The notes under the pieces were generated by a model. The model ran no database searches, was not told the DNA's origin, and saw nothing but the letters and a program-made list of their open reading frames with translations. DNA of 52,970 nt, taken from NCBI GenBank assembly GCA_034428375.1, contig DAOUHT010000116.1:1-52970 (forward strand), in the 5' to 3' direction. Shown here one piece after another: positions 6,557 to 24,937 of the stretch. This DNA is from Dehalococcoidia bacterium (GTDB lineage Bacteria; Chloroflexota; Dehalococcoidia; Lucifugimonadales; Australimonadaceae). Both the position numbers and the translations under genes were made by a program. Within the stretch, counting starts at the first letter, position 1. Every line of letters begins with the position of its first letter.

Positions 6557-6595
6557 AGTATAACGGCAGGGCGGGCAATCGGCAGGGGATATAAT
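6557..6595. promoter_or_regulatory. Putative divergent sigma70 -10 boxes
   Basis: TATAAT at 6590-6595 (+, towards the redoxin gene); TATACT at 6557-6562 (-, towards pheT) with CTGCCG 17 nt upstream. Confidence 0.4.
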
Positions 6596-6644
6596 GAAGA
6601 TGTGTCATGCGGAAGGCATGGGCACATGGGGAGGAGGGTGCCGC

Positions 6645-7946
6645 ATGACAGGTCGGCTTTGGATCGTCCGCATTTCCCTGGGCGTGTTGCTCTTGGTGCT
6701 GCTTGCCGTTGTCGTAACGGGATGCAGCGAGGAGGACGAGGCAACGCCCACCAGCGAGCCTGTCGCGTCGTCCGAGGCGACGACGACCGATGCTCCTGCC
6801 GAGCCGGCCGGTCCGCCGCCCACGCCCATGATGCCCGAATTCGAGGAGACGGGAAGTACGGGCGGCGAGCTGGGCGACATGGCCCCGGAGTTCACGGGCA
6901 TATCCCAGTGGCTCAACAGTGACGAGCTGACGATGGAGGGGCTGCGTGGGGACGTCGTCCTCATCGACTTCTGGACGTACACCTGCGTGAACTGCATCCG
7001 CACGATGCCCTTCCTGCGCGAGTGGAATGAGAAGTATGCGGACCGCGGCCTCACGATGATCGGCGTGCACACGCCCGAGTTTGACTTCGAGAAGATCACC
7101 GACAACGTCGTCGCGGCGAACGATGAGCTGGGAGTCGTCTGGCCTGTCGCGCAGGACAACGATTTCGGCACCTGGCGCTCCTACAACAACCGCTTCTGGC
7201 CCGCGAAGTACCTGATAGACGCGAACGGCGTTGTACGGTACACGCACTTCGGCGAGGGCGCGTACGACGAGACGGAGCATCACATCCGCGCGCTGTTGGA
7301 AGAGGCCGGCAACGACGTGTCGGATATCGAAGCCGATTCGGACGAGGGGCCGACGGTCGACCAGCGGGCGCGCGGCACTTCCCGCGAGAATAACGACTCC
7401 CAGACGCGCGAGATATACGGCGGCTGGCAGCGCAACGCATCGAACACCGGGCTGTACATCGCGCACCCGCAGTACTACGACGGGCAGGGCCTCACCCAGG
7501 CCTACCGCGACCCGGGCAACCACCTGAACCAGTTCATGTACCTGCACGGCTCGTGGCGCTCCGACCTGGAGGCGATAGCCCACGCGCGGGAGACCGAGGA
7601 CTACGAGGACTACATCGCGCTCCGCTTCTTCGCCCGTACCGTCAACATCGTCCTCGACCTCGAGGAGGGCGTAGAGCCGTTCGAAGTCGAGGTCACGATC
7701 GCCGACAGTCCGGCGGAGGGAGCCGACGCCCGCGCGCCGCTGGACTACCGCCCCCTTGCTGCGGACGAGGCGGGCGAGCACATCGTTATCGAGGGCGGGC
7801 GCAGCTACTTCGTGGTGGATGAGCCGGACCTGTACAACGTCGTATCCTTGCCCGAGTTCGGAGACGCTGAGCTGAAGTTCTCGTCGAACTCCCCGCACTT
7901 CGCGCTTTTCGCGCTCACGTTCGGCTCCTACGACGAGGTTTACTAG
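6645..7946 (+). CDS. Lipoprotein with a TlpA/DipZ-like thioredoxin domain (CxxC) and a DipZ-like C-terminal domain
   Basis: SD GAGGAGG before ATG 6645; lipobox VVTGC; VVLIDFWTYTCVNCIRT; GVHTPEFDFEK; YNNRFWPAKYLID; HFGEGAY; about 200 aa C-terminal beta-rich domain. Confidence 0.85.
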   Translation: MTGRLWIVRISLGVLLLVLLAVVVTGCSEEDEATPTSEPVASSEATTTDAPAEPAGPPPTPMMPEFEETGSTGGELGDMAPEFTGISQWLNSDELTMEGLRGDVVLIDFWTYTCVNCIRTMPFLREWNEKYADRGLTMIGVHTPEFDFEKITDNVVAANDELGVVWPVAQDNDFGTWRSYNNRFWPAKYLIDANGVVRYTHFGEGAYDETEHHIRALLEEAGNDVSDIEADSDEGPTVDQRARGTSRENNDSQTREIYGGWQRNASNTGLYIAHPQYYDGQGLTQAYRDPGNHLNQFMYLHGSWRSDLEAIAHARETEDYEDYIALRFFARTVNIVLDLEEGVEPFEVEVTIADSPAEGADARAPLDYRPLAADEAGEHIVIEGGRSYFVVDEPDLYNVVSLPEFGDAELKFSSNSPHFALFALTFGSYDEVY

Positions 7947-7953
7947 AGGAACG

Positions 7954-8607
7954 ATGCCGAACCCGCGCCTGCATTCCGCCGTCGTCGGGGCGCTCGTTAT
8001 CGCGTGCGCCACTGTGGCGTGCTCGTCCGAATCCACCCCTACCCCCACGCCGACTCCGACACGCGTTCCTCCTCCCACACCGGAACTGCCCGCGTTCGAG
8101 GTTTCGGGGAACAACGGCGGTCTGATCGGCGACGGCGCCTCCAAGTTCACCGGTATTACGCAGTGGCTCAACAGCGAGCCGCTGACGATGGAGGGGCTGC
8201 AGGGGAAGGTGGTGCTGATCGACTTCTGGACGTACACCTGAATCAACTGCATCCGTACCGTGCCGTACTTACAGGACTGGAACGAGAAATACGCCGGAGA
8301 CGGCTTCATGATCGTCGGCGTGCACGCGCCGGAGTACGAGTTCGAGAAGCGCACCGAGAACGTGATCGAGGCGGCGGCGGAGCTGGGCGTCGTCTGGCCC
8401 ATCGCGCAGGACAACGACTTCCGGACGTGGCGCTCCTACAACAACCGCTACTGGCCCGCGAAGTACCTGGTCGACGCGAACGGCGTCATCCGCTTCACCC
8501 ACTTCGGCGAGGGCAGATACGAGCAGACCGAGCACCACATCCGCGCGCTGATGGCGGAGGCGGGCTACGAGGTGCCGGACGTGACCATCGGCAGAGAGGA
8601 GTCCTAG
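7954..8607 (+). CDS. Thioredoxin-like lipoprotein with an in-frame TGA at the active site (UxxC); candidate selenoprotein
   Basis: ORFs 7954-8241 and 8260-8607 share a frame. The sequence reads DFWTYT-TGA-INCIRTVPYL against DFWTYT-TGC-VNCIRTMPFL in the upstream paralog. Lipobox TVAC plus a Pro/Thr linker. Confidence 0.8.
8247..8274 (+). promoter_or_regulatory. Candidate bacterial SECIS element
   Basis: Upper stem GTAC (8255-8258)/GTAC (8265-8268) closes the loop CGUGCC, with GU at +22/+23 from the U of UGA; lower stem CTG/CAG. Folded by eye. Confidence 0.5.
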
Positions 8608-8611
8608 GACG

Positions 8612-9547
8612 ATGCGCCGCCTGCGCTTCTCCATTGCCATCCTCGGCGCGTTCGTTGCTGCGCTGTTCGCTGCCGCCTGCTCGCCTGAACCCACGCCTAC
8701 CCCAACGCCGACTTGGACTCCTGTGCCTGAGGTGCAGGAGTGGGAGACCATCCTCGGCACGACGGTGCTCCGCACCGGAACGCAGCGGGTGGCGTTCCTG
8801 CTCGCCTCCGGCTCCGCGCTCGTGCGTGTGCCCGAGGCGACCGTGACCACGACGTTTCTGGACGGCAGCGCCGAGGGCGAGACGGCGACCGCGCAGTTTC
8901 ACGAGTGGCCGTTCGGCACGCGTGGCTCCTACGTAACGCAGCTGACATTCCCGGTGGTGGGCACGTGGCGGCTCGACATCGAGGGCGAGGGAGGCGAAGC
9001 GTCGCTGGAGATCCAGGTGGACGAGACGTCCATCGTGCGGGACATCGGGCAGATCGGCGTCTTCAGCAACACGAAGACGCTGGACAGCGCGGGCGGCGAC
9101 ATCAGCAGCATCACATCCCACTTCAGGCCCGACCCGGCCCTGTATGAGATAACTCTCGCGGAATCGCTGTTCAGCGGCAGGCCGACGGTAGTGGTATTCG
9201 CGTCACCCGCGTTCTGCACAACGGCGACATGCGGCCCGCAGGTGGAGACCGTCACCGAGTTGCGCGAGGCGTACCCGGACGCGGCTGACTACATCCACGT
9301 CGAGGTGTACGACAATCCGCACGAGATACAGGGCGACCTTACGAGGGGCGTCCTCTCGCCGGTGCTGGCCGAGTGGGGCATAGACCAGGTCGAGCACTAC
9401 CGGAACGAGTCTTGGACGTTCATCATCGGCGCTGACGCTCGCATCGCAGAGCGCTTCGAGGGCTACGCCACGTTCGAGGAACTGGAAGAGGCGCTGCAGG
9501 AAGTGGGGCTGGTACTTAGCAGCTACCACCATGTTGGGACCAGCTAG
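8612..9547 (+). CDS. Lipoprotein with an N-terminal beta domain and a C-terminal thioredoxin-like fold carrying CxxxxC
   Basis: Lipobox FAAAC, PTPTPTPT linker, VVVFASPAFCTTATCGPQV, YIHVEVY, ESWTFIIG. Confidence 0.75.
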   Translation: MRRLRFSIAILGAFVAALFAAACSPEPTPTPTPTWTPVPEVQEWETILGTTVLRTGTQRVAFLLASGSALVRVPEATVTTTFLDGSAEGETATAQFHEWPFGTRGSYVTQLTFPVVGTWRLDIEGEGGEASLEIQVDETSIVRDIGQIGVFSNTKTLDSAGGDISSITSHFRPDPALYEITLAESLFSGRPTVVVFASPAFCTTATCGPQVETVTELREAYPDAADYIHVEVYDNPHEIQGDLTRGVLSPVLAEWGIDQVEHYRNESWTFIIGADARIAERFEGYATFEELEEALQEVGLVLSSYHHVGTS

Positions 9548-22543: not shown

Positions 22544-23557
22544 TCACTGCTCCCGTTCTACGGTCATCCAGGCCAGCGGCCCCGGCCCCACTTGCATTTC
22601 CCCGTCTCTCCCCAGCGATAGCCGACCACCCCTGGCCACGACGTGAGCGGCCTGTGCGAGCTTCTGGTGTCCGAGCGTCGCACCGTCACCGTGCAGCGAG
22701 CGCCATGCGCGCTCCAGCACGCGTGGCAACAGCGCGGGCGGCAGCGCCCGCAATGCGCTCTTCGGCCATGACACCGACGCCCCGGAACGCTCCTCGACCT
22801 CGCTCACAGCGCCGGCGGCAAGCTGGTCGAGCAGCGCGTCGTCATCTGCGGCGCGTTCAGCGAAACCTGCTAACGCTGCGCGGACGTGCGGGTTGAGCTC
22901 TGTGAGTTCGCGCAGCACGCGCAGCCGGACGCGATTGCGGGCATAGCGGAGCGAGCGGTTCGTCGCGTCGTGTGCAGGCCGGATGCCTGCCTCCGCGCAG
23001 ACGGACTCTGTGTCGGCGCGGGTAACGTGCAGCAGCGGGCGCAGCAGCGTCAGCGTCTGACCGTCCACGCTGCGCTCGGAGCATTCGCGTATCGCGCCTG
23101 CGCCACGCAGTCCGCTTCCCCGCGTCAGGCGCAGTAGCACCGTTTCGGCCTGGTCGTCCTGCGTGTGAGCGGTGAGGATGGCCACCGCGTCGTGTTCGGC
23201 GCCAGCTCCGGCGAGGAAACGGTAGCGGGCGTCGCGCGCTCCGGCCTCATTCGACGGCGACTGTGCCGCGCCCGACGTGAACGGCATACCGAGCGACTCG
23301 GCAGCCCGCCGAACAGATGCGCGCTCGCGGCGGTCCGCGGTGGGACGCAGCCCGTGAGAGAAGTGCGCGGCGACCATGCGACGCCGTGTCCGTGTGCCGA
23401 TCTCGGCGCACGCGAGCAGCATCGCCATCGAGTCTGCACCGCCTGACACCGCGAGGAGCAGCGCTCCGTCGCCCAGACGCTCGCGATGGCGGGCGAGCGC
23501 GCGGCGCATCGCCATCGCCACCCGCCGCGTTGCGTTCCGTGAGCCGGAGGCCGTCAT
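22544..23557 (-). CDS. tilS: tRNA(Ile)-lysidine synthetase (short form)
   Basis: AVSGGADS PP-loop, EAGARDARY, TAHTQDDQAETVLLRLTRGSG, RPLL, DATN, RNRVR. Confidence 0.92.
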   Translation of the reverse strand: MTASGSRNATRRVAMAMRRALARHRERLGDGALLLAVSGGADSMAMLLACAEIGTRTRRRMVAAHFSHGLRPTADRRERASVRRAAESLGMPFTSGAAQSPSNEAGARDARYRFLAGAGAEHDAVAILTAHTQDDQAETVLLRLTRGSGLRGAGAIRECSERSVDGQTLTLLRPLLHVTRADTESVCAEAGIRPAHDATNRSLRYARNRVRLRVLRELTELNPHVRAALAGFAERAADDDALLDQLAAGAVSEVEERSGASVSWPKSALRALPPALLPRVLERAWRSLHGDGATLGHQKLAQAAHVVARGGRLSLGRDGEMQVGPGPLAWMTVEREQ

Positions 23558-24834
23558 TCCTCTTCCGGGTCGGGGTCACGCGTGACGCGCACGCGTCCGA
23601 TGCGGACGCCCCGCATCTCCAGCACCGCGAAGTGCAGGTTCGCGAATCCAACCTCCGCCCCCACCTCCGGTATGCTGCCCATCTGCTCCAGCAGGAAGCC
23701 CGCGACGGTCTCGTACTCGCCGCTGGGCAGGTTCAGCGATAGTTGCTCATTGGCGTCCGCGATGGAGAGCCCGCCGTCCAGGTAGGCGGTGCCGTCTTCC
23801 AGCACCTCTATCTGCGGCACGTTGCCTTCTGCATCTTCGCCTTCCTCGACCTTGCCCACGATTGACTCGACGAGTCGCTTGAACGTGACGAGCCCCGCCA
23901 CGCCGCCGTACTCATCGGCCACCATCACGATGGGGTCGCCGTTGGAGCGCATCTCGTCGAACAGGTCGTCCAGGCTCTTGGTCTCAGGAACGAAGCGGGG
24001 AGAGCGCGACTCCAAGGGGGCAGGGGAATCCGCCTCGGCTCCACCTGCCAGGGCGCGCATCACATCCTTGACGCTGACCGTGCCTACGACGTCGTCGAGC
24101 TGGTCACTCACCACGGGGAAGCGGGTGTGGTAGTTGTTGCTGTAGAGGTCCTGGAAATCGCGGATGGTCGCGCCGACCTTCAGCGCGATGATCTCCGGAC
24201 GTGGAGTCATCAGCTCGCTGACGCGTCGATCGCCGAAGTCCAGCACGCGGCGGATGATGTCAGCGTCGCCCTGTTCCACAGTGCCCGACTCGCTGCCGAC
24301 CTCCACCATCGCCTTAATCTCCTCCTCAGTGATGAGGTGGGAGAGCGACCCGCCGCCGAAGAGCTTGGCAATCGTCATGCTGATCGTCTGCAGGATTATC
24401 GAGACGGGCTTGAGCACCCATCCGATGCCCTGGATGACGGGCGCAACGATGATGGAAGTGCGCTCCGCGTGTCTTGCGGCCACCGTCTTGGGGATGGTTT
24501 CGCCGAATACCAGCAGCACGATGGTCACGGCAGCGGTGGCAGTTGCGACAGCGAGGTTCTCGTCAACGATGAGCAGCAGCATGATGCTTGTGGCGATGGC
24601 CGCTGCGCCGGTGTTCACGAGGTTGTTGCCGAGCAGGATGGGCGGCAGCAGGCGCTCCGGGTGCTCGATCATGCGTTCGACGCGGGCGGCTCCTGCCGTT
24701 TTGTCGGTGACCAGGCGGCGCAGGCGTACTCGCTGCACGGAGAGCAGCGCCGCCTCCGAACCTGAGAAGAATGCCGAAAACAAAAGAAACACCGCCAGCA
24801 GCATCAGGCTGGCGGCGCTAACGTCGCTCCACAT
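23554..24834 (-). CDS. CNNM/CorB-type hemolysin-family protein (DUF21 + 2 CBS + CorC_HlyC)
   Basis: SAFFSGSEAALLS, ILLGNNLVN, FGETIPKT, MTPR, HTRFPV, DEYGGVAGLVT, YETVAGF. Confidence 0.92.
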   Translation of the reverse strand: MWSDVSAASLMLLAVFLLFSAFFSGSEAALLSVQRVRLRRLVTDKTAGAARVERMIEHPERLLPPILLGNNLVNTGAAAIATSIMLLLIVDENLAVATATAAVTIVLLVFGETIPKTVAARHAERTSIIVAPVIQGIGWVLKPVSIILQTISMTIAKLFGGGSLSHLITEEEIKAMVEVGSESGTVEQGDADIIRRVLDFGDRRVSELMTPRPEIIALKVGATIRDFQDLYSNNYHTRFPVVSDQLDDVVGTVSVKDVMRALAGGAEADSPAPLESRSPRFVPETKSLDDLFDEMRSNGDPIVMVADEYGGVAGLVTFKRLVESIVGKVEEGEDAEGNVPQIEVLEDGTAYLDGGLSIADANEQLSLNLPSGEYETVAGFLLEQMGSIPEVGAEVGFANLHFAVLEMRGVRIGRVRVTRDPDPEEE

Positions 24835-24937
24835 CGTGGGTAACCTCTCTCCGTCGCGGGATTGTTGTTCCGCCACGGTACGTATCTGTCATGGCGAGGA
24901 TGGTAGCATAAGGCGAGGCGCGCAGCCTGCTGCTGAC

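Follow-up and report, generated by a model that had tools for sequence, protein, structure and literature searches.

A probable lipid-anchored selenoprotein with a thioredoxin fold, encoded next to its cysteine paralogue in a Dehalococcoidia genome

In a stretch of 52,970 nucleotides from a Dehalococcoidia bacterium (contig DAOUHT010000116.1; "the window" below means this whole stretch), one frame of 218 codons at 7954-8607 is interrupted by a sole internal stop, a TGA at codon 96 (8239-8241), which raises the question of whether this codon ends a protein or encodes Sec. An earlier note on this DNA had stated that two short ORFs share a frame here, in agreement with the ORF list (7954-8241 and 8260-8607), and that the only stop falls on the first Cys of a CxxC motif; indeed, the TGA sits within FWTYT-U-INC, and its wider surroundings read VVLIDFWTYT-*-INCIRTVPYLQDWNEKY. 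The note had also described an adjacent paralogue (par1) with TGC at this position and with homology continuing on both sides, and this too was found: the first Cys of the par1 CxxC is a TGC at 6984-6986, in the motif region VVLIDFWTYTCVNCIRTMPFLREWNEKY (read as VVLIDFWTYT-C-VNCIRTMPFLREWNEKY), and the two proteins are 68% identical over 186 aa, with GVHxPE, YNNRxWPAKYL and HFGEG in common. We consider it probable, at roughly 85%, that 7954-8607 is the gene of a 217-aa selenoprotein, with UGA 96 read as Sec, and that the product is an exported, lipid-tethered thioredoxin resembling the DipZ C-terminal domain, TlpA and ResA, with a U96-x-x-C99 redox pair. The features of the locus are collected in Table 1.

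Table 1. Features of the candidate selenoprotein gene and of its two neighbours in the window.
Feature	Position	Strand	Remarks
Cys paralogue (par1)	6594..7946	+	Lipoprotein; DipZ-C-like thioredoxin domain and C-terminal Thioredoxin_10
Shine-Dalgarno-like GAGGA	just upstream of 7954	+	Gene start 7 nt after the par1 stop
Full selenoprotein gene (probable)	7954..8607	+	217 aa, U96; single frame; same architecture in seven syntenic orthologues
Signal peptide with lipobox (predicted)	7954..8022	+	PROSITE PS51257-type pattern match
Pro/Thr-rich flexible linker SSESTPTPTPTPTRVPPPTPEL	8023..8088	+	From translation; low pLDDT (51-70) in residues 1-50
In-frame TGA, putative Sec 96	8239..8241	+	Attacking residue at the N-terminal end of U-I-N-C; helix 97-113 follows it in the model
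Resolving Cys99, TGC	8248..8250	+	UxxC motif; invariant column C99
Candidate apical SECIS hairpin	8255..8268	+	GUAC 8255-8258, loop CGUGCC 8259-8264, GUAC 8265-8268
Pro168 of RYWPAKYL, presumed cis-proline	8455..8457	+	At least 90% conserved; aligned with DipZ RYWPAEYL
Gene stop codon	TAG 8605-8607	+	Terminates the 7954-8607 gene
311-aa lipoprotein gene	8612..9547	+	4 nt after the Sec gene; synteny conserved; lipobox FAAAC

Across the 53-kb window, a six-frame scan revealed one in-frame TGA flanked on both sides by strong coding signal; GC3 is 0.92 before the TGA and 0.92-0.94 after it. Since TGA is the ordinary stop of 15 of the 43 window genes, the genetic code is standard. We then searched one genome per species (596 Gb) with a degenerate DNA pattern for F-W-T-Y-T-TGA-x-N-C. 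This gave 75 matches, against about one expected by chance according to our own calculation, and in 72 of them the gene is a homologue whose frame stays open and homologous before and after the TGA; the three others, from gut Bacillota/Mollicutes, were short and unrelated and were discarded. The genomes with the Sec form are mostly Dehalococcoidia/Chloroflexota/SAR202 (69/72), the exceptions being a Cellvibrionaceae, a Rubrobacter and an unidentified bacterium. They include diverged Sec subfamilies, with motifs such as U-INCIRTVPY, U-YNC(E/K)NTWPAL, U-INCLRTLPYL, U-INCKRTLPYV and U-INCVRTLPAV, among others. The subfamily of the window gene has seven members (L013, L016, L035, L042, L053, L068 and L071), all of which keep the TGA. 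Their locus is collinear in every case (pheT, the Cys paralogue, the Sec gene, the 311-aa gene, rubrerythrin and SHMT), at 77-95% nucleotide identity, and all seven share the signal peptide, the Pro/Thr linker and the C-terminal ...VPDVTIGR(E/Q)ES. The earlier note had asked of orthologues whether the TGA aligns with Cys or is unique to this genome: the same TGA recurs in 72 genomes, seven of them syntenic, and U96 aligns with the invariant first Cys of 49 homologues (column C96 of a 50-sequence alignment).

This recurrence bears directly on whether the TGA could have arisen through faulty sequencing or assembly. A single assembly is the source of the window, and exact protein fragments of it were found nowhere else on record, an exact-sequence look-up having returned no record for its 311-aa, 95-aa or 115-aa products. 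The same TGA codon is nevertheless present in independent assemblies of seven orthologous loci, and in 72 genomes in total, and we regard an error as practically dismissed. The full-length Sec form itself is absent from the protein collection.

A second possibility is a pseudogene or null allele, in which the protein would end at residue 95 through a nonsense mutation from TGC to TGA, with no translation of what follows. Such a mutation would take a single base change, a near-identical strain carries TGC at this codon, the local SECIS is thermodynamically weak, and no Sec machinery was seen within the window. Against this, the TGA is kept in seven syntenic species, the GC3 of 0.92-0.94 persists downstream of it, and the sequence that follows shows neither frameshifts nor extra stops. 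In pairwise Nei-Gojobori comparisons of the window with the seven orthologues, dN/dS is 0.13-0.27 over the 45 codons before the TGA and 0.15-0.36 over the 121 codons after it; the latter values indicate that the downstream half is maintained as protein, which makes a pseudogene very unlikely.

The allele of the near-identical strain also counts against a pseudogene. In the surroundings of the locus, three contigs from metagenomes (L001-L003) match the window with 96-98% identity, yet have Cys here. Within their gene, the 5' half, in which both the CxxC codon and the SECIS region lie, resembles their own Cys paralogue (88-95% identity) more than the Sec gene of the window (only 72-88%), while the 3' end is 95-100% identical to the latter; a new signal peptide comes from an inserted stretch of about 400 nt. 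As the TGA persists in seven other species, Sec is ancestral at the locus, and, judging from these identities, the Cys allele of L001-L003 is a derived mosaic that arose via recombination with par1 and not the ancestral state. The locus thereby illustrates neatly how Sec and Cys can be exchanged between tandem paralogues in nature. In the family as a whole, at least 8 Sec/Cys changes are required by a neighbour-joining tree built on 198 domains, Sec and Cys forms together, and the Cys form of the motif was found in many phyla among the matches listed (at least 120). One may speculate that the Cys/Sec tandem acts as a recombination switch, in which gene conversion from the Cys paralogue erases the UGA and the SECIS, as in L001-L003, so that sponge-associated SAR202 could toggle a surface reductase by selenium supply, together with a lineage SelB recognising a minimal non-canonical SECIS (4-bp stem, CGUGCC loop); we hold this combined proposal to be rather unlikely.

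The predicted protein has the layout of an exported lipoprotein. Its N-terminus, MPNPRLHSAVVGALVIACATVAC-SSES, fits a PROSITE-type lipobox, as do those of par1 and of the 311-aa protein. The lipobox A-T-V-A-C is located at 8011-8022, with a second possible one (VIAC) at 7996-8007; the lipidated residue is probably Cys23, which of the two is the one that all 8 orthologues retain. By pattern match, the N-terminal Arg, the hydrophobic core and the PS51257-type lipobox are conserved in the same 8 orthologues. Searched with U replaced by C, the protein matches the Pfam families AhpC-TSA, Redoxin and Thioredoxin_8 above their cut-offs, and no selenoprotein-specific model of NCBIfam matches it. Assignment to the ResA, DsbE (CcmG) or TlpA equivalogs was rejected on score (60.3 bits versus a cut-off of 170 for the ResA subfamily, 29.6 versus 123 for DsbE, and 27.2 versus 230 for TlpA). 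The AlphaFold model, built from a 50-sequence alignment, has a pLDDT of 86.9, and shows a strand at residues 86-92 followed by a helix at 97-113, so that U96 would cap the N-terminus of helix α1, where thioredoxins have their nucleophilic Cys. Foldseek matched the model to DipZ (2HYX; rmsd 1.1 Å over 155 columns), NHLRC2, SOQ1, ResA and pneumococcal Etrx2. The alignment shows little or no variation at C96, N98, C99 and the WP168 region.

The fold also weighs on the reading in which the TGA is an intended stop, the locus giving two products, a lipopeptide of 95 aa and a 115-aa fragment initiated internally. An ORF beginning with GTG does exist at 8260-8607. However, the model indicates one thioredoxin fold divided between the strand at 86-92 and helix α1 at 97-113, of which neither half would be foldable alone; moreover, the C-terminal half has no signal peptide, and no Shine-Dalgarno sequence is evident before 8260. 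We judge intended termination to be highly improbable.

Reading the codon as Sec is supported by the TGA in 72 genomes, by purifying selection on both halves of the gene and by the standard code, and likewise by Sec-synthesis genes in related genomes, by the position of U at the helix N-cap and by the lipobox. The central proposal of the earlier note, that Sec replaces the attacking Cys in an exported lipoprotein thioredoxin, is thus upheld by the conservation of the TGA, the selection, the fold and the lipobox.

The signal that would direct Sec insertion is less clear-cut. In the E. coli fdhF SECIS, G23 and U24 lie in the loop. The earlier note had placed a GU at +22/+23 in the loop of a hairpin just downstream of the TGA; counted from the U of UGA, G22 and U23 are indeed in the loop (8260-8261). 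The window gene resembles fdhF-type elements in having a hairpin directly 3' of the UGA whose apical loop contains a G and a U at a distance of about 20 nt, but has only 4 invariant base pairs, an energy of about -4 kcal/mol, no identified bulged U and no covariation. The 15 nt CGTACCGTGCCGTAC are identical in 8/8 orthologues, and 11 consecutive degenerate codons (-2 to +12) are invariant at the nucleotide level; no other stretch of the gene is invariant for so long, and the background invariance is 52%. By our estimate, a run of this kind has a probability of about 0.04 over the whole gene and of about 0.005 in the +1 to +9 region specified beforehand. In L016, L035 and L042 the hairpin is longer, with 10-11 bp and -12 to -14 kcal/mol; when forced, it reaches only -4.4 kcal/mol in the window and -2.8 in L053, and the lower stem pairs poorly in both the window and the relatives nearest to it.

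Folding energies were of little help. RNAfold of 8239-8300, the segment that the earlier note had singled out, gave -7.9 kcal/mol (z = +1.4), which is thermodynamically unremarkable. Over nt +7 to +54, the MFE z-score is -0.15 for the window and above 0 for the closest orthologues, and the means of 61 Sec and 89 Cys sequences (-0.33 versus -0.26) did not differ (Mann-Whitney p = 0.32), for which reason we dropped folding stability as evidence of a SECIS. In the eight-sequence alignment of the window's subfamily, the 11-bp hairpin model is 75% paired, with no compensatory pairs. Rfam gave neither an RNA family nor a match to a SECIS model, whether at the gathering threshold in the whole window or at E <= 10 in 8150-8400. 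Of the SECIS proposed in the earlier note, then, the existence of the hairpin stands and its sequence is invariant; its energy in the window is marginal and covariation is zero. The note had further remarked on a TTA codon, rare in this DNA, as a trace of structural constraint. TTA is rare (0.9% of Leu codons in the 43 window genes), but it is common only to the window and L013, and since the other orthologues have TTG, CTG or GTG, it is no evidence of such a constraint. A different and much stronger hairpin, with its loop at +32, was found in the subfamily U-YNC..TWPALRAW, where it is 92% paired versus 20-50% with slid partners, and where there is one CG-to-UA compensatory pair. Overall, a SECIS in the window gene is plausible from its sequence but unconvincing if judged by structure alone. 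According to BSepDB, about 13% of bacterial selenoprotein genes have no canonical SECIS (PMC13326102).

We looked for the Sec machinery in the window and in related genomes. No selA, selB, selD or tRNA-Sec lies within the 53-kb window; E. coli SelA, SelB and SelD as tblastn queries gave no match in the window and 78 loci, and ARAGORN predicted no tRNA-Sec in the window, in 60 Sec-gene loci or in 80 selA loci. As a closer query for SelA, we used a Chloroflexota SelA, 47% identical to that of E. coli over 453 aa. The best 80 of 407 SelA relatives all belong to Dehalococcoidia/Chloroflexota, and in those 80 Dehalococcoidia loci selB and selD are not beside selA. SelA homologues in genomes with Sec forms are 59-100% identical to the query; within the best 80 of 407, SelA was found on replicon OZ219949.1 together with a Sec form (L067/L357), and in the MAGs RHO2_bin_36 (L073/L360) and RHO1_bin_4 (L025/L362), both of which have Sec forms. 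Slaby et al. 2017 (Table S4; PMC5649159) list COG1921 (SelA), COG3276 (SelB) and COG0709 (SelD) in the SAR202 bins bin16 (MPMJ) and bin127 (MPNN). One close orthologue of the window gene (L068) is on the bin16 contig MPMJ01000019, and another Sec-pattern locus (L052) comes from bin127. In BSepDB, two Dehalococcoidia MAGs rank among the top ten by selenoprotein genes, with 46 and 49 (PMC13326102).

These observations must be set against the possibility that the UGA is recoded, but not as Sec: by near-cognate insertion of Trp or Cys, or by a tRNA delivering Cys via SelB. Conservation by itself shows only that the codon is translated, and Cys is tolerated at the site in the paralogues. Nevertheless, a UGA at the redox-active Cys of a UxxC motif is the classic signature of Sec, and SelA, which is specific to Sec synthesis, occurs in genomes with Sec forms. 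SelA, SelB and SelD are reported for bin16, TGA otherwise acts as a stop, and Dehalococcoidia MAGs with 46-49 selenoprotein genes are on record (PMC13326102). We therefore assign to this kind of recoding a very small probability, and retain Sec as the reading of the codon.

Of the solved structures, that of the DipZ C-terminal domain from M. tuberculosis (2HYX, 5CYY) comes closest, with 48% identity (E = 6e-48). The two share the F-W-x-Y-x-C-x-N-C active site, the RYWPA(E/K)YL cis-Pro region and the FGEG motif, and differ at the active site itself, which is Y-S-C-I-N-C in DipZ and Y-T-U-I-N-C in the Sec protein. DipZ has Cys, and its thioredoxin-like part is flanked by a CcdA-like membrane domain on the N-terminal side and a carbohydrate-binding-like domain (Pfam Thioredoxin_10) on the C-terminal side, whereas the Sec protein ends 15 residues past its thioredoxin domain, without Thioredoxin_10. 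Classification as DipZ proper (Rv2874-type) was therefore discarded: the protein has neither the CcdA-like nor the Thioredoxin_10 domain, the latter being present only in the paralogue at 6594-7946. We found no literature linking DipZ-like proteins to Sec. A second likeness is to the extracytoplasmic TlpA-like reductases that are membrane-anchored or lipoproteins, namely the Gram-positive surface proteins S. pneumoniae Etrx1/Etrx2 and B. subtilis ResA/StoA/YkuV, which appear among the structural matches (2yp6/4hqz, 1st9, 2b5x) at only 20-32% identity and are all Cys proteins. Proteins of the Etrx/ResA type draw on a CcdA-type transporter for the electrons with which they reduce extracytoplasmic targets. 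Genes for their partners (CcdA, MsrAB, cytochrome c maturation) often lie next to theirs, but none of these adjoins the Sec gene.

Selenoproteins with a UxxC motif have themselves been described before. Thiol-disulfide isomerase-like, Prx-like and Trx-like UxxC selenoproteins were reported from the Sargasso Sea by Zhang, Fomenko & Gladyshev in 2005 (PMC1088965) and again in the GOS survey of 2008 (PMC2398784), and a 2026 review lists a cd02966 (TlpA-like) UxxC family (Table 1 in PMC13188914). The window gene shares with these a bacterial thioredoxin fold, Sec in place of the first Cys of CxxC and abundant Cys homologues, the published families being mostly marine; membership in the cd02966 family, of which MGB1650493.1 is a published example, is possible from its motif and TlpA-like fold. 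In contrast to the published UxxC families, the present clade has the FWTYT-U-x-N-C signature, is DipZ-C-like, and is concentrated in Dehalococcoidia/SAR202. We would place the gene among the known UxxC thioredoxin-fold selenoproteins, as a mis-annotated member or clade. Its novelty is low, as the literature already contains both UxxC selenoproteins of the thiol-disulfide isomerase-like kind and Dehalococcoidia rich in selenoproteins.

The following mechanism can be envisaged. UGA 96 would be decoded as Sec by Sec-tRNA(Sec) and SelB, the latter presumably recruited by RNA 3' of the UGA (about 8250-8275), with the hairpin at 8255-8268 as the invariant core. The product would be exported via the Sec translocon and lipidated at the lipobox Cys, so that the Pro/Thr linker would tether the domain at the outer face of the cytoplasmic membrane. 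There, U96 may attack substrate disulfides (or sulfenates), forming a selenylsulfide that C99 would resolve, and may then be re-reduced by a donor of the CcdA/DsbD type. By analogy with the reductases above, the most likely role would be that of an extracytoplasmic reductase that repairs target proteins, or keeps them reduced, in an oxic habitat; Sec would provide an attacking residue that is more nucleophilic and resistant to over-oxidation.

Gene callers split or truncate this gene, and the clade has no selenoprotein model in NCBIfam. As a consequence, at least 72 species-level genomes, almost all from Dehalococcoidia/SAR202, carry a mis-annotated surface redox protein. With correct annotation, the selenoproteome of this lineage, which is abundant in the sea and associated with sponges, would gain a putative Sec oxidoreductase that is lipid-anchored outside the cytoplasm. 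The general picture is unchanged, as both UxxC thioredoxin-fold selenoproteins and selenoprotein-rich Dehalococcoidia were known before.

The Sec gene is the middle member of an operon-like array of three lipoprotein genes on one strand, with spacings of 7 and 4 nt, between the Cys paralogue and a third Cys-containing lipoprotein. The upstream member, par1, matches Redoxin (1.8e-11), AhpC-TSA and Thioredoxin_10 (1e-10) in Pfam, and its lipobox is VVTGC by the PROSITE-type pattern; its true start is likely near 6645 (MTGRLW...). The downstream member, the 311-aa protein, has no match in Pfam or NCBIfam; it contains a C-x4-C motif (FCTTATC) and a weakly thioredoxin-like C-terminus, with 3ia1 matched at E = 0.42 only. 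Pfam searches found no CcdA/DsbD domain and no sel gene among the approximately 45 genes of the window. In four other Sec subfamilies the neighbours are unrelated (DHDPS, methylase, luciferase-like, peptidase S9 and Ldh_2) and include no common partner; a redox partner gene is adjacent neither here nor in those four. A rubrerythrin gene is found 1.5 kb downstream.

The locus of the Sec gene (window 7954-8607) is occupied by a mosaic Cys allele in a strain 96-98% identical to the window (L001:5410-6510, also L002 and L003). The allele, seen in these three independent metagenome assemblies, combines a 5' half resembling that of par1, the upstream Cys paralogue, with a 3' end resembling that of the Sec gene itself, and carries an insertion of ~400 nt that cuts short the ancestral-position signal sequence and encodes a replacement for it.

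In the Sec subfamily with the motif U-YNC(E/K)NTWPALRAW (loci within L005-L078, from our search with the TGA pattern), we found a strong 11-bp hairpin downstream of the TGA (nt +20 to +46), encoded by the near-palindromic peptide W-P-A-L-R-A-W. The hairpin is 92% paired, with one compensatory pair (CG to UA). It looks as though the RNA element has shaped the protein sequence at this site. Our pattern search also returned three contigs of gut Bacillota/Mollicutes (L010, L027 and L041), which all share the short stretch YASFWTYT*TNCY around the TGA and have further stops a little way off on either side; they are unrelated to the thioredoxin family. They probably represent one conserved sequence, read in another frame or belonging to a non-coding stretch.

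Downstream of the Sec gene, and in conserved synteny with it, is a gene for a predicted lipoprotein of 311 aa. We found no matching family for this protein in Pfam or NCBIfam; it contains the motif FCTTATC (C-x4-C), and its C-terminus is only faintly thioredoxin-like (3ia1, E = 0.42). It may constitute a third redox partner in the lipoprotein gene array.

Among the best 80 of 407 SelA relatives (Dehalococcoidia/Chloroflexota loci L321-L400), we did not find selB, selD or tRNA-Sec within 5 kb of selA, whereas in E. coli selA and selB form the selAB operon.

Elsewhere in the window there is an aromatic-compound catabolism gene cluster (32479-52970) of a type typical for SAR202. In the ORF containing the TsaD domain, the domain covers only part of the frame, and the first ~240 codons overlap a CNNM/CorC gene on the opposite strand; tsaD therefore probably begins well downstream of the annotated ORF start. 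Finally, the ORF with collagen repeats failed the GC3 coding filter; it may therefore be an artefact of the high GC content, or else encode a genuine protein of Gly-X-Y repeats.

Features of the window outside the Sec gene and its Cys paralogue
Feature	Window position	Strand	Remarks
ORF, 219 aa	1443-2102	-	Pfam Collagen triple-helix repeat, E = 8e-11
Predicted lipoprotein, 311 aa	8612-9547	+	starts 4 nt past the Sec gene
CNNM/CorC gene	23554-24876	-	
ORF with TsaD domain, 597 aa	24164-25957	+	TsaD = residues 282-571 only
Three Rieske ring-hydroxylating oxygenase alpha subunits	within 32479-52970		aromatic catabolism cluster
Two LigB-type extradiol dioxygenases	within 32479-52970		aromatic catabolism cluster
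HpaB-like monooxygenase and two ABM monooxygenases	within 32479-52970		aromatic catabolism cluster
Amidohydrolase and two alpha/beta hydrolases	within 32479-52970		aromatic catabolism cluster
ABC transporter and MFS transporter	within 32479-52970		aromatic catabolism cluster
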